A stretch of DNA of 64,000 nt from an uncultured Candidatus Saccharibacteria bacterium (GTDB lineage: Bacteria; Patescibacteriota; Saccharimonadia; Saccharimonadales; CAYZZS01). Of the stretch, positions 24,078-60,877 are shown piece by piece. Where the stretch lies: the NCBI GenBank assembly GCA_964620175.1, contig CAZUIL010000001.1:12584-76583 (forward strand), written 5' to 3'. The stretch's first letter is position 1, and every line of letters starts with the position of its first letter. The notes beneath the pieces are model-generated. The model had not been told where the DNA came from. It ran no database searches and was given only the letters and a program-made list of their open reading frames with translations. The translations under genes and the position numbers were made by a program.

Positions 24078-25259
24078 ATGGCAGAGTTTGACAGAAGCAA
24101 GCCGCACGTAAACGTAGGTACCATGGGACACGTTGACCACGGCAAGACTACGCTTACGGCAGCTATTACACACGTACTGGCTAAAAAGCTTCCAAGCGAC
24201 GTTAACAAGCCAATCAAATACGACGAGATTGATAAGGCGCCAGAGGAAAAGGCGCGTGGTATTACCATTGCGACTTCGCACCAGGAATATGAGTCAGAAA
24301 AGCGCCACTACGCGCACGTTGACATGCCCGGACATGCCGACTATGTCAAGAACATGATTACCGGTGCAGCACAGATTGACGGTGCTATCCTGGTAGTTTC
24401 TGCAGCTGACGGTCCAATGCCACAGACACGTGAGCACGTATTGCTCGCTCGGCAGGTTGGTGTACCGAAGATCCTCGTTTTCATGAACAAGATGGACCTC
24501 GCCGATCCTGAACTGGTAGAGCTGGTGGAAATGGATATTCGTGAACTGCTTGCCAAGTACGAATTCGACGAAAACTGCCCGATTATTAAGGGCTCCGCAA
24601 CCAAAGCGCTTGAAGGCGACAGTGCCAACGAAGACGCCATTATGGAACTGGTTAAGGCGATGGATGACTACATCCCAGAGCCAAAGCGCGACCTTGACAA
24701 GCCATTCATGATGGCAATCGAGGACGTCTTTTCCATTAAGGGTCGGGGCACGGTTGCGACCGGACGTGTTGAGACGGGTATAGTCAAGATTAACGATGAA
24801 GTTGAAATCGTTGGTATCCGCGACACTCGTAAAAGCGTTGTTACCGGTGTTGAAATGTTCAAGAAGAACCTTGAGCAGGGACAGGCGGGCGATAACGTTG
24901 GTATCCTTCTCCGCGGTATTGAGCGCGAAGACATTGAGCGTGGGCAAGTGCTTGCCAAGCCAGGCTCTATCACCCCGCATACCGAATTTGAGTCCGAAGT
25001 ATATATCCTGACCAAGGAGGAAGGTGGTCGTCACACGCCATTCTTTAAGGGCTACAAGCCGCAGTTTTACTTCCGAACCACGGACGTGACCGGTGAGGTA
25101 GAATTACCAGCCGATAAGGAAATGGTTATGCCGGGCGACACAGTAACCTTTAAGGTGAAGCTGCTTGCTCCAATCGCTATGGAACAGGGCCTGCGCTTCG
25201 CTATCCGTGAGGGTGGCCGCACCGTCGGCGCCGGAGTCGTCACGAAGATTAATAAGTAA
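24078..25259 (+). CDS. tuf: Elongation factor Tu
   Basis: [14 protein letters not shown], 393 aa. Confidence 0.97.
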
Positions 25260-25283
25260 GTATACTGAGTTAATCTAACAAAG

Positions 25284-25312
25284 AGAGCCTCGGAATTCCG
25301 AGGCTCTTTCAA
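25284..25312 (+). terminator. Rho-independent terminator after tuf
   Basis: Perfect 10-bp stem AGAGCCTCGG / CCGAGGCTCT with loop AATT, followed by TTCAATT. Confidence 0.6.
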
Positions 25313-25694
25313 TTGGCGAAATACGGAGTTAGAAAAGGAGGACAAGTGTGCTAGGCAGGGGTTCAGAGTAATTGATGTAGTTGTTGTGAACCCCCGCCGG
25401 CTCGTGCATGCAATTTGCCTAATCGCTCTCTGTTCTGGTCTCGGAAATTCCGAGCGAGAATACTATTGCTATTAATAACCCGGTTAGGGCATACGTTTCC
25501 CAAATCGGATTTTGGTAAGCAAAAATTAATATCTTGGTGAAGGTAAAGTTCCTCTCAAAGCAAGTAAGCCCTTGCAAAGTGCTTTTATTTATCAGCATTT
25601 TGTTATACAATATTGCTACAAACTTAATTGTGGTGATTAAAAGTCGCTGTCCGCTCTCTCTATAGTGCGCCGGAGATGTTACACCACACCAGAG

Positions 25695-25784
25695 GTTATA
25701 GTTTCTAGGTTCTAGGTTATAGAAGAAACCGCAAAACCTAACACCTAATACCTAAAACCTTTTGGACTCGAAAGGAGTCAAAAA
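25695..25784 (+). promoter_or_regulatory. S10 operon leader: repeat array plus RBS-sequestering hairpin
   Basis: CTAGGTTCTAGGTTATAG direct repeats are followed by AACCTAACACCTAATACCTAAAACC (the inverted AACCTA family). The hairpin GACTC-GAAAG-GAGTC contains the SD AAGGAG immediately 5' of the rpsJ ATG. Confidence 0.45.
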
Positions 25785-26120
25785 ATGGCTGAAAGTAAAA
25801 AGGCCGAAGCAAGTACCAATCAACGGATTCGTATTCGTCTCAAGGCATACGACCATAAGGTTATTGACCAGTCTGCCAAGCAGATTGTTGATACGGCGCT
25901 GCGTACCGGCGCAACTATAGCCGGACCAATCCCGCTGCCAACCAAACGGACAACCTACACTGTTATCAAAAGCCCGCACGTATATAAGAAAGGCCGTGAA
26001 CAGTTTGAAATGCGTATCCACAAACGGCTTATTGATGTACTCGAGCCAACGCCGAAGACGATTGACAGCCTGATGAATCTTTCATTACCGGCAGGCTGTG
26101 ATGCTGAAATTAAAATGTAA
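25785..26120 (+). CDS. rpsJ: 30S ribosomal protein S10
   Basis: [26 protein letters not shown]... matches S10. Confidence 0.95.
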
Positions 26121-26195: not shown

Positions 26196-27278
26196 ATGGC
26201 ACAATTGCAATCAAGTATTGAAGCGGCTCCGTTACACGGTGGTGCCACCGATGTTGAGTTACTTGATTCGAGGGACTACTACCAGGAGTTAATGCAGCGC
26301 ATCCCACATGTACGTGAACGTGCTCATATGATGGCTATGGCTTTTTGGGCCGACGGCGCTACCGAACCGTTAATCGAATCATTGGCAGATTGCGCCGCCA
26401 ACACTGACGCAAACGTCAGCTTAGCGGCCGATAGCTTTTCGCGGTTAATGTACAACCATCTGCCTAGATGGATGCTCATGGGCAAGATGCGTGAGGCGAG
26501 CGATGGGCAATGGCAAAGGACTAAACGCCTCATTACCAGACTTGAGGAGAGCGGTGGCCAGTTCAAGTGGTTGGATACACCATCTAACCTTAAGAAGACA
26601 CTGTTCTTTCTGAACACCAACCATATTAAAGCCACAATTCTAGATGATACCGTGTATCTCGGTGGGGCGAACATTACCGGTAAAGATCTTAGCGAATCTA
26701 TCGATTTTATGGTGCGGGTCGAGAGCCCAGAATTGGCGGATATCCTAGAGCTGGTGTTGTTTGAACAAGAGGACATTGAAAGGTCAGATTTTGTACTGCA
26801 CAGCAGGAACATAGGCCATATTTACTTTGATTCCGGCAAGCGGAACCGCTCGCTTATATATGAGACAGTAAACAGCCTTGTTGCTCAAGCGGCAGAAGAG
26901 GTAAAGTTAGTAACCCGGTTTGCCCCGACCGGTACGCTCAAGCGTTCATTGGAGCAGGCGCAGGCAAATGGCGCCGAAATTAACTGTGTCTATTTGCGGC
27001 AAAAGGATATCAGCTGGCTGTACAAAGGTCTCGGCCGCTTAGGTATTCTCCAAAGCCGTCGTCTGCCTGCACGGCCCCAATCTGACATGAGTGTTGAGCA
27101 GTACGGCCCCCTGCACGCTAAGCTCTTAATCGCAGATGATAAGCTTGTCGTTAGTTCTCATAACTTTACTGGCGCGGGAGTATTGCTGGGAACCAAGGAG
27201 CTAGCAGTTATCACAGAAAACACAAAACTGGTTGCACAAGCACATGAGGCGTTTGACACCTATTTTAGTGAAGCGTGA
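26196..27278 (+). CDS. Phospholipase D / cardiolipin synthase-like protein with two HKD motifs
   Basis: HIKATILDD...GGANIT and HAKLLIADDKLVVSSHNF are HxKxxxxD motifs. The N-terminal region is PLD-like. No TM segment. Lower GC than the flanks. Inserted between rpsJ and rplC. Confidence 0.65.
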   Translation: MAQLQSSIEAAPLHGGATDVELLDSRDYYQELMQRIPHVRERAHMMAMAFWADGATEPLIESLADCAANTDANVSLAADSFSRLMYNHLPRWMLMGKMREASDGQWQRTKRLITRLEESGGQFKWLDTPSNLKKTLFFLNTNHIKATILDDTVYLGGANITGKDLSESIDFMVRVESPELADILELVLFEQEDIERSDFVLHSRNIGHIYFDSGKRNRSLIYETVNSLVAQAAEEVKLVTRFAPTGTLKRSLEQAQANGAEINCVYLRQKDISWLYKGLGRLGILQSRRLPARPQSDMSVEQYGPLHAKLLIADDKLVVSSHNFTGAGVLLGTKELAVITENTKLVAQAHEAFDTYFSEA

Positions 27279-27357
27279 GCTTGACCGCGCTGCAGCAACA
27301 ATACAGCTCATCTGTCCCGTGTAATGTAATTGAAGAGGGGCTTGCGGGTATGCTAGT

Positions 27358-27660
27358 ATGAAGCGAATAATTGTTATGGCTAAAACAAGGAAAAATAAAA
27401 ATGACAAATCAACTGGCTCGGCGGCTGATACCGTCTACCTCCTGAAGTTAGCTTTACTTTTAGTAGTCGGTTCATTCTGGATTAAGATTACCCGTGGAGA
27501 AGCGGCCCAGCTGCCGATACCGGCAGGCTTTTTAATTGGCCTGCTCGCAGCTTCTCACGAGCGTTTTGCCATTGACCGTAAAATTCAATTTGCCATCCTG
27601 CTCGTTTCGATGCTGGTCGGATTTTGGCTGCCATATGGCATTTTTGTGGCGTTGGTGTGA
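27358..27660 (+). CDS. Small polytopic membrane protein (about 3 TM)
   Basis: 100 aa, low GC, hydrophobic helices. Confidence 0.45.
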   Translation: MKRIIVMAKTRKNKNDKSTGSAADTVYLLKLALLLVVGSFWIKITRGEAAQLPIPAGFLIGLLAASHERFAIDRKIQFAILLVSMLVGFWLPYGIFVALV

Positions 27661-27661
27661 A

Positions 27662-28117
27662 ATGACGAGAAAATGGCTTAAACTCCTGCTGCATGCACGC
27701 ATACTGCTACTATTGGGCATCATTGCCTTCCTGTTTATAGGAACCGCTTTCTATTACCAGTACCAGTATGTGTTTAAGAGTACTCGTGTCATCGGTACCA
27801 TCATAACCAAGGAACGGGATGTTAGATCGGGAATCCATAGGCCAATTAGGGATACAGCGGGCTACATTTACACTGTACAGTTACCTGAACCGGTATTTGA
27901 CAGGACACAATATAGATTGCAGGTTGACGGCAATTTTCAAGTCGGCTCCGGGATTGAGATCGCAGTTCTAGAAGACTCTGATGAAGCCAGGCTATACTCC
28001 TCCAAACAAAACTATTTTCTCGCTTGGCTGATAGCTGTGCCGCTGGCAGGCTTGCTATTTGTCGTTATATTTATGACAAAAGGTTTCCAGAGGCGAACTG
28101 ATCGCAAACATGCTTAA
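27662..28117 (+). CDS. Membrane protein with N- and C-terminal TM helices flanking a ~100-aa soluble domain
   Basis: ATGA overlap with the previous ORF. Begins MTRKWLKLLLHARILLLLGIIAFLFIG and ends ...LAWLIAVPLAGLLFVVIFM. The architecture is reminiscent of the DUF3592 type. Confidence 0.45.
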   Translation: MTRKWLKLLLHARILLLLGIIAFLFIGTAFYYQYQYVFKSTRVIGTIITKERDVRSGIHRPIRDTAGYIYTVQLPEPVFDRTQYRLQVDGNFQVGSGIEIAVLEDSDEARLYSSKQNYFLAWLIAVPLAGLLFVVIFMTKGFQRRTDRKHA

Positions 28118-28138: not shown

Positions 28139-28166
28139 TTGACAGAGGTGGTGAAAATCTGATAAT
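28139..28166 (+). promoter_or_regulatory. Sigma70-like promoter upstream of rplC
   Basis: TTGACA, a 16-nt spacer, then GATAAT. The palindrome TGTAGAatagTCTACA lies immediately 5' at 28121-28136. Confidence 0.4.
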
Positions 28167-28285
28167 CTATTGCGGTATATCAAGACTTTGTACGGCAGCA
28201 CTTGGTGATTTAGCAGGTCTAACAGAGATAGAAACCGCTAGGCACCAAGCATTTTATTGCTCAGTACTAAAAACCGAAGGAAGTT

Positions 28286-28897
28286 ATGAAGGGATTGATA
28301 ACGCGCAAGCTAGGCATGACCAGTACCATCAACGATGACGGTACCGTGCAGGCTATTACCTTGCTTTCTGCTGAGCCAGGTGTGGTAACCCAGGTTAAGT
28401 CGGATGAGTCCGACGGCTACACCGCGGTCCAGGTTGGCATTGGTACGGGCAAGCGTCTGTCAAAGTCGCTCATCGGCCACCTTAAGCCTTCCAAGAGCAC
28501 ACCAAAGGTAATCAAGGAATTCAGGGTGAGCGAAATTACAGAGGCCATGCAGGTTGGCGCCACCATCACCGCTGAAGCATTCGAAGTTGGTGACATCGTG
28601 CACGCTACCGGAACAAGCAAAGGTAAAGGATGGGCTGGTACTATCAAGCGTCATAATTTCCATCGGGGTCGCAAAACGCACGGCGGCCGCTCATACCGAA
28701 GGGTCGGCTCTATCGGCTCGATGTACCCACAGAAGATTTTTAAGGGCAAGAAAATGGCTGGACAAATGGGCAATGAGCAGGTGACCGTTCGCAACCTAAC
28801 CATCGCTTTGGTAGACAAAGAGCATGGCGTAATCGGCGTAGCCGGGGCGATACCAGGCCCTCGCAAGGGTATCGTTATATTACGGGGGGCAAACTAA
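28286..28897 (+). CDS. rplC: 50S ribosomal protein L3
   Basis: MKGLITRKLGMTSTINDDG... matches L3. Confidence 0.95.
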   Translation: MKGLITRKLGMTSTINDDGTVQAITLLSAEPGVVTQVKSDESDGYTAVQVGIGTGKRLSKSLIGHLKPSKSTPKVIKEFRVSEITEAMQVGATITAEAFEVGDIVHATGTSKGKGWAGTIKRHNFHRGRKTHGGRSYRRVGSIGSMYPQKIFKGKKMAGQMGNEQVTVRNLTIALVDKEHGVIGVAGAIPGPRKGIVILRGAN

Positions 28898-60147: not shown

Positions 60148-60270
60148 CACTAGGGCCCAAATAATTTAGAATGTAGCAGATTACCAAAGACAGTAGCGTT
60201 TGCCTACGAGCGAATTAAGAAGGCTACCGAGGTTCAACAAGCAAGTACGTATAGTCGTAGAGTTGTAAAC

Positions 60271-60297
60271 GTCTTTGGTAGCCCAAAGGCTTTTTTT
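60271..60297 (+). terminator. L10 (rplJ) leader attenuator hairpin
   Basis: GTCTTTGG-tagc-CCAAAGGC followed by T7, 50 nt upstream of rplJ. Confidence 0.55.
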
Positions 60298-60346
60298 ATG
60301 GCTCGTTAACAAACAAGGTCGATCAGTAAACTAACAGAGGTTTCAA

Positions 60347-60877
60347 ATGGCTTTATCGAAAGACAAGAAGCATGAAATAGTTCGTGAGGTAGCGGACCTG
60401 CTGTCTGCCTCAAAACTAACGGTAGTAGCAAAATATCAGGGTACAACGGTGGGAGCAATGCAAACCCTGCGCCGTGAGGCCCGACAGAACGGGACAAATG
60501 TCAAAGTAGTGAAAAACCGCTTGCTTAAGAAGGCAGTGGAGCAAGTCGACACATTAAGCGAGGTGGACACCAGTATGCTAGACGGCATGTTGATGTACGC
60601 GTTTAACAGTGATGACGAAGTTGCGCCAGCACAGGCGCTCGCTACTTTTGCCAAGACCAATCCAAATATTGAATTTGTCGGTGCGATCACATCAGAAGGC
60701 AAATTCATTGGTCCAGAGGATGTCAAAGCACTAGCTGACTTGCCGAGCAAAGAACAATTGCGCGGCATGTTGGTAGGCACCATCGCGGCACCGCTAAGCG
60801 GTTTCGTCAATGTGCTGGGTGGTAATGTGCGTAGCGTATTAAATGTACTAAATGCACGTGCAGAAGCAATTAAATAG
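60347..60877 (+). CDS. rplJ: 50S ribosomal protein L10
   Basis: L10 homolog. Confidence 0.93.

Follow-up and report, generated by a model that had tools for sequence, protein, structure and literature searches.

A variable spacer between rpsJ and rplC in Saccharimonadales and a divergent two-HKD protein found in it in one genome

What are a gene for a phospholipase D-like protein and two genes for small membrane proteins doing between rpsJ and rplC, the genes for ribosomal proteins S10 and L3? The question is raised by a 64,000-nucleotide stretch (hereafter, the window) of contig CAZUIL010000001.1 from an uncultured Candidatus Saccharibacteria bacterium (assembly GCA_964620175.1), in which rpsJ (positions 25785–26120 of the window) is followed by a gene for a soluble 360-aa protein with two HKD motifs (hereafter, PLD; 26196–27278), by the open reading frames (ORFs) ORF2 (27376–27660) and ORF3 (27662–28117), encoding membrane proteins of 94 and 151 aa, respectively, and by rplC (28286–28897), all on the forward strand. 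A first-pass annotation of the sequence regarded rpsJ and rplC as normally adjacent and interpreted the intervening genes as a single island of low guanine-plus-cytosine (GC) content inside the S10 operon, an embedding that would guarantee retention and co-expression. The explanation that we consider best for the locus as a whole, and rather probable, is a different one: the S10 array is split in this order of bacteria, the interval is a variable spacer between two transcription units, ORF2 is native to it, and PLD is lipid-synthase-like cargo.

The interval between rpsJ and rplC in Saccharimonadales

The comparison drew on 80 related genomes, mostly metagenome-assembled genomes (MAGs), each represented by the 10 kb that flank rplC on either side; rpsJ, rplC, and homologues of the three query proteins were located in these sequences by tblastn, and 68 of the loci contain both ribosomal genes. 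In the window, rpsJ, identified from its ORF, its translation, and tblastn, is the last conserved gene 5′ of the variable spacer. The rplC ORF heads the downstream S10-type operon, and its L3 product shares 65–76% identity with the L3 proteins of 80 species-representative genomes, the majority of them labelled Saccharimonadales, which places the source of the window in that order (Saccharibacteria, TM7). The presumed adjacency of the two genes does not hold in this lineage: they are separated by 186 to 9259 nt (median, 1430 nt), and the gap is shorter than 300 nt in just 4 of the 68 loci. In 52 of the 68 loci, the gap contains an ORF2 homologue encoded on the same strand as rplC; such a homologue is upstream of rplC in 62 of the 80, whereas homologues of PLD and ORF3 were found in none of the 80 (tblastn, 10 kb around rplC). 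The comparison of neighbourhoods proposed in the first-pass annotation thus dissolves the single three-gene island into one common resident and two genes absent from the relatives, PLD being cargo specific to this genome. The smallest gaps with any gene at all (L020, L031, L061, L035, and L080) contain ORF2 alone, and from this simplest layout among the relatives we infer that the ancestral order was probably rpsJ, ORF2, leader, rplC.

The remaining contents of the gap are highly heterogeneous. With cargo genes called by a greedy longest-ORF rule, which is crude, 223 gap ORFs fall into 138 clusters, and matches to Pfam assign the 120 larger gap products to 42 families or more. NUDIX hydrolases are represented 16 times, and further cargo includes Maf, PfkB kinases, GT2, CTP synthase (PyrG), adenosine deaminase, Pup ligase, and VanY; about 30% of the cargo genes are on the opposite strand. 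No integrase, transposase, or defence family is present among the 25 cargo families listed. The space between rpsJ and the rplC promoter is, in other words, a hypervariable spacer with short-lived cargo and rapid turnover. The argument that embedding at this site guarantees retention and co-expression fails, because the interval is a unit boundary whose cargo does not last.

Two side observations concern individual loci of this set. In four of them (L012, L023, L059, and L070), an opposite-strand ilvA/ilvB/RidA block is found between rpsJ and rplC, comprising threonine dehydratase (500 aa), the large subunit of acetolactate synthase (568–590 aa), and a RidA-like protein; three of these blocks also include an 84–87-aa protein without a family match. 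In addition, the records of L008, L012, L052, and L065 are labelled as Burkholderiaceae, Nevskiaceae, Bacillota, and Dormiibacterota MAGs, respectively. All four contain an rplC of the Saccharimonadales type (68–73% identity) and the Saccharimonadales leader described below, and ORF2 is present in L008, L012, and L052; these public records have probably been mis-binned or mislabelled.

Promoter and leader RNA of the rplC unit

Upstream of rplC, the window contains the sigma-70-like promoter TTGACA-16-GATAAT (28139–28166, forward strand) that the first-pass annotation had assigned to this gene; it matches at 11 of 12 positions. Among the 80 related loci, 51 have a promoter-like site (at least 10 of 12 positions, at most 250 nt upstream of rplC), compared to 25 of 400 shuffled sequences (6%). 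Between the promoter and rplC lies a leader element of ~75 nt, which in the window occupies positions 28190–28259 of the forward strand and in the relatives (L003–L082) is found about 30–150 nt upstream of rplC. It folds into a nested three-stem hairpin with conserved loops (AGG, AACAGAGG, and GAAACC), and its last part is a U-run. Compensatory changes are seen in 12 of the 18 pairs predicted by RNAalifold. When both strands of 1.36 Mb were searched with a covariance model derived from 37 sequences, 80 of 81 sources yielded exactly one copy, immediately 5′ of rplC, and nothing matched elsewhere. A 14-bit match upstream of rpsJ (25522–25589; E = 0.03) was considered as a second copy in the window and dismissed as unconvincing.

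Because promoter-like sites are enriched and a conserved, covarying leader lies upstream, rplC appears to open its own regulated transcription unit in Saccharimonadales, and the rpsJ–rplC interval would therefore be the boundary between two units. Judged by these sequence features, the S10 array of this order is split after rpsJ; it is not a contiguous S10 operon, in which rplC follows rpsJ with no promoter between them, and the genes in question would stand beside a separate rplC unit, not in the interior of an operon. None of the papers in the literature searched links Saccharibacteria to a split of the S10 operon, and the mentions of rpsJ in a study of Saccharibacteria concern solely the use of its promoter (PMC10633639).

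The leader has what is expected of a ribosomal-protein leader, namely, a conserved and covarying structure in the 5′ untranslated region of a ribosomal-protein operon, and we consider it a candidate for a new autoregulatory attenuator, with L4 as a possible ligand. If so, it would be a candidate case of ribosomal-protein feedback control in bacteria of the candidate phyla radiation (CPR). The S10 operon of Escherichia coli has an L4-responsive leader and attenuator. Like that leader, the Saccharimonadales element combines a structured hairpin with a U-run and forms part of the 5′ leader of an rplD-containing operon; a promoter of its own, strong conservation, and covariation accompany it. Unlike it, the element precedes rplC and not rpsJ, which has been split off; it also matches no Rfam family at either gathering or E-value thresholds. 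The literature searched contains one published rplC-proximal leader candidate, from the archaeal Archaeoglobi (PMC7247131), and does not include the Saccharimonadales rplC leader itself.

Class and possible activity of the two-HKD protein

The first-pass annotation correctly recognized PLD as a soluble two-HKD protein of the PLD (HKD) superfamily. It contains two HxK(x)4D motifs, scores 68.1 bits against Pfam PLDc_2 (cut-off, 27 bits), and adopts the PLD fold in an AlphaFold2 (AF2) model built with the alignment from a profile search (predicted local distance difference test, pLDDT, 89.5; predicted template modelling score, pTM, 0.90). Both motifs, HIKATILD (H143, K145, and D150; 26622–26645) and HAKLLIAD (H307, K309, and D314; 27114–27137), are intact: in a 56-sequence alignment of the family, H143, K145, D150, H307, and N323 are invariant, and K309 and D314 are nearly so. 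PLD has neither a predicted transmembrane (TM) segment nor a hydrophobic N-terminus.

Within the superfamily, the family as a whole points to the lipid synthases. Of its 56 members, 55 match ClsB (best E-value, 2.8e-47) and 53 match bacterial Cls (best, 1.8e-81). The closer relatives of PLD match Cls models at e-12 to e-31, as opposed to e-5 to e-8 for NucT; their scores are 22–94 bits to ClsB and 22–110 bits across the ClsB/Cls models, the cut-offs of which are 281–290 bits. In Foldseek searches with the PLD model, PLD3/PLD4 and PssA are retrieved at similar E-values, the highest TM-score being that of PssA (0.69), and the N-terminal half of PLD aligns to the PssA model and to PDB 3hsi. Remote homology, the modelled fold, and gene context together suggest that PLD belongs to the Cls/Pss branch of lipid synthases, where it would be very divergent and probably active. 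Like ClsB, it combines two HKD motifs in one chain and is soluble without an N-terminal TM segment, at a length of 360 versus ~410 aa; unlike ClsB and Cls, it would be a remote offshoot and not an orthologue, and it scores far below their curated cut-offs. Similarly, it shares with type I PssA (PDB 3hsi, 8yr5) the top TM-score and the alignable N-terminal half, and differs from it in sequence (16% identity) and in length (360 versus ~450 aa).

Several results weigh against this assignment or against the explanation of the locus to which it belongs. PLD itself gives no hit to ClsB (NF008427; cut-off, 281 bits) at E ≤ 1e-3; it scores 22.3 bits to PssA (NF006946; cut-off, 314 bits), over the N-terminal half alone, and 13.5 bits to Cls (TIGR04265; cut-off, 290 bits). 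Its best single hits in both NCBIfam (2.2e-10) and PADLOC (5.1e-12) are to DrmC of the DISARM system, and Foldseek places the PLD3/PLD4 nucleases marginally first. Finally, homologues of PLD (38% identity) and ORF2 are again neighbours in a lineage independent of this one (L002, L087, and L088), a recurrence that is discussed in the next section.

The matches to DrmC and to the PLD3/PLD4 exonucleases, as well as the second rank of Nuc (1byr) in a profile search of PDB, would fit a DrmC- or Nuc-like nuclease or defence effector that cuts nucleic acids. PLD does resemble DrmC in its C-terminal HKD domain; however, the match is partial, covering the C-terminal half alone of a protein with two HKD motifs and reaching 40.5 bits against an NCBIfam cut-off of 133 bits. 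Nor do drmA, drmB, or methylase genes adjoin PLD, the neighbours of which are rpsJ, ORF2, ORF3, and rplC. The stronger scores of its relatives to Cls models than to NucT argue against a nuclease, as do the contexts of the relatives, which are housekeeping or lipid-related. We regard such a nuclease as very unlikely. Of the two roles that the first-pass annotation had left open, lipid synthesis is favoured over that of a defence effector, and the substrate is more probably a lipid than a nucleic acid.

Close relatives of PLD are very rare: a search of 5.8 billion clusters returned three, namely, PLD itself, P0002, and P0003 (38% identity). A profile search recovered 66 two-HKD proteins of ~360 aa from other phyla. 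A metagenome scan for PLD relatives yielded five loci, none of them in the rpsJ–rplC context of Saccharibacteria; L089 (31% identity) is a CPR-like contig without ORF2. The contexts of nine PLD relatives are of the housekeeping type and contain no defence genes; one of the relatives has genes for inositol-1-phosphate synthase and for a GT4 glycosyltransferase as its neighbours. In four of the nine, the PLD gene is adjoined, and in most cases overlapped, by a gene for a DedA/VTT-like membrane protein (one call above the Pfam cut-off and three sub-threshold), which suggests that the wider two-HKD family forms a conserved pair of enzyme and membrane partner. In these pairs, the DedA/VTT-like gene is located upstream or downstream of the PLD gene (L001, 9531–11101; L083, 5531–7107; L085, 6001–7868; L097, 3001–4892).

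If PLD belongs to the Cls/Pss branch, it would most likely act as a phosphatidyl-transferase at the cytoplasmic face of the membrane, exchanging or condensing phospholipid head groups. Saccharibacteria are lipid auxotrophs, and the remodelling of scavenged phospholipids would suit an epibiont without fatty-acid synthesis. PLD-type interconversion of scavenged phospholipids has also been proposed in a published analysis of Saccharibacteria genomes (PMC6031116). PLD could therefore serve as a tractable candidate for phospholipid editing by a lipid-auxotrophic epibiont.

ORF2, ORF3, and the origin of the locus

All three genes between rpsJ and rplC are real: the NCBI annotation contains identical products of 360, 94, and 151 aa, and the annotated frame is the best of six for each ORF under a codon model derived from the housekeeping genes of the window. 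The spacers 5′ of PLD, ORF2, and ORF3 measure 75, 97, and 1 nt, respectively. ORF2 most likely starts at 27376, which gives 94 aa, rather than at the alternative position 27358. That two small membrane proteins follow PLD was well observed in the first-pass annotation; the overlapping ATGA arrangement attributed to their genes is in fact TGAAATG, with the stop codon of ORF2 (27658–27660) one base apart from the start of ORF3 (27662).

ORF2 contains three predicted helices, according to both a Kyte–Doolittle (KD) scan and the AF2 model. In a profile search at E ≤ 1e-3, its family comprises at least 3553 clusters (90% identity), all of about 85–100 aa, and every named organism among them belongs to Saccharibacteria or Patescibacteria. 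Nearly all entries are unnamed or "hypothetical," and the transporter labels of a few JGI entries are apparently spurious. The family is characterized by a Lys/Arg-rich N-terminal tail and a nearly invariant SHEHFxIDRKIEY motif between helices 2 and 3, given for ORF2 as SHE(H/R)FxIDRKI. A Pfam scan of 28 members gave noise alone, without a match to VTT/DedA; ORF2 has no match in PADLOC, and no structural relative was found. ORF2 is clearly a native, vertically inherited resident of the spacer across Saccharimonadales, independent of PLD, and would have a lineage-wide function separate from it. It is thus a very widespread Saccharibacteria-specific membrane protein that marks the split point and has neither a name nor a structural relative.

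ORF3 is an orphan, with TM segments at residues 8–26 and 119–137 surrounding ~90 soluble residues. When 1.84 billion representatives were searched exhaustively with HMMER, no homologue was returned, the output consisting of the self-match and two artefacts. The latter are giant repeat proteins (2851 and 991 aa), rejected as homologues because their scores are sums of weak tandem-repeat matches. No match was obtained with phmmer against all spacer proteins or in PADLOC. The DUF3592 family has the layout of TM segment, soluble domain, and TM segment, and ORF3 was initially described as DUF3592-like. In layout the two would be alike; unlike a member of that family, ORF3 has no homologue at all, and neither its 151-aa nor a 193-aa version matches Pfam DUF3592 (PF12158) at E ≤ 10, so that the label comes down to architecture. 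A protein of similar layout, unrelated to ORF3 (170–184 aa, no Pfam match), is encoded directly after the ORF2 homologue of L058 (9047–9601).

Could PLD, with ORF2, ORF3, or both as its membrane anchor or partner, nevertheless form a functional module for a Saccharibacteria-specific way of handling lipids? In the second PLD lineage (L002, L087, and L088), PLD and ORF2 homologues are again adjacent (38% and 47% identity, respectively) and in reversed order, the ORF2 homologue being immediately upstream of the genes for P0002 and P0003; this recurrence could reflect a functional link instead of a common location. The one-base spacing of ORF2 and ORF3 and the membrane partners typical of the wider PLD family, where a small polytopic DedA-like gene often adjoins or overlaps the PLD gene, also fit such a module. 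However, the second lineage counts as just one independent case, known from contigs of less than 2 kb, and may share the same hotspot. Furthermore, ORF2 is found without any PLD in 52 of the 68 loci and in at least 3553 clusters and is not DedA-like, and ORF3 has no homologue. We consider the module improbable. An extended version, in which the rpsJ–rplC spacer is a dedicated, strongly expressed accessory platform anchored by ORF2, and PLD together with ORF2, ORF3, or both constitutes a previously undescribed module for the scavenging or remodelling of membrane lipids, appears to us equally improbable; if true, the module would help the epibiont to use host-derived phospholipids.

The proposal of an island referred to composition, with a GC content of about 40–48% in the three genes against ~57% in their flanks. 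The actual values are 49.3% for PLD, 45.9% for ORF2, and 44.7% for ORF3, as compared with 47.0% for rpsJ, 53.4% for rplC, 52.2% for the window, and a mean of 52.6% (standard deviation (SD), 3.1) for the ORFs of the window. The argument from low GC fails because the native ORF2 and rpsJ are equally low. PLD is near-native in composition, its GC content being lower than the mean by ~1 SD and its codon usage ranking 16th among 64 genes. ORF3, which has the lowest GC content of the three, has the fourth lowest codon score of the 64 genes. No integrase or tRNA was found near the locus, the flanking repeats were of 12–20 nt and at chance level alone, and searches with PLD against phage, plasmid, and IMG/VR sequences retrieved no relatives. 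The hallmarks of a genomic island, namely, an integrase or transposase, repeats or a tRNA, deviant composition, and phage or plasmid relatives, are thus missing from the locus.

These observations bear on the possibility that the locus is a horizontally acquired island, perhaps encoding a secreted phospholipase toxin directed against the host bacterium along with ORF3 as an immunity-like protein. The absence of PLD and ORF3 from 80 relatives, the extreme rarity of close PLD homologues, and the composition of ORF3 would be in line with this scenario, as would the lifestyle of Saccharibacteria, which are epibionts taking lipids from their hosts (PMC10633639). Conversely, PLD is near-native in composition, lacks phage, plasmid, and viral relatives as well as a hydrophobic N-terminal signal, and is not accompanied by an integrase, a tRNA, or flanking repeats; moreover, the native ORF2 separates PLD from ORF3, so that these two did not arrive as one block. 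An acquired toxin island is, in our estimate, decidedly unlikely. We infer that PLD, ORF2, and ORF3 represent neither a mobile island, nor a defence system, nor an obligate three-part machine.

The split array with a variable spacer remains the explanation that we prefer. The S10 operon of Saccharimonadales would have been split after rpsJ, with ordinary genes coming and going on either side of ORF2; in the genome studied here, PLD would have been gained between rpsJ and ORF2, and ORF3 between ORF2 and the rplC promoter. Because no terminator-like site was found between rpsJ, PLD, ORF2, and ORF3, transcription from the rpsJ promoter probably continues through the three genes. Under this explanation, little is left of the supposed new system within the S10 operon, and a false lead is avoided. 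PLD adds a divergent member to a known superfamily, in a context that is ordinary for this lineage and unusual for bacteria in general. The more original results are by-products, namely, the lineage-wide split of the S10 array, the resident ORF2, and the conserved leader of rplC. The S10 array, which is among the best conserved in bacteria, appears to be broken in a whole CPR order, at a single point that tolerates rapid turnover.

Additional features of the window lie outside the rpsJ–rplC interval. The spacer (25260–25784) between tuf, encoding EF-Tu (24078–25259), and rpsJ has an unusual length (525 nt) and a low GC content (41.5%). Within it are a perfect 12+12 palindrome at 25284–25307, which is probably the tuf terminator, and, just 5′ of rpsJ, a long imperfect hairpin (~25692–25762; z = −1.9). 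Further downstream, at 60166–60305, a match to the Rfam L10_leader (47 bits; gathering threshold, 44 bits) is located 5′ of an rplJ-like ORF at 60347; it is ordinary and in keeping with the ribosomal genes present in the window.

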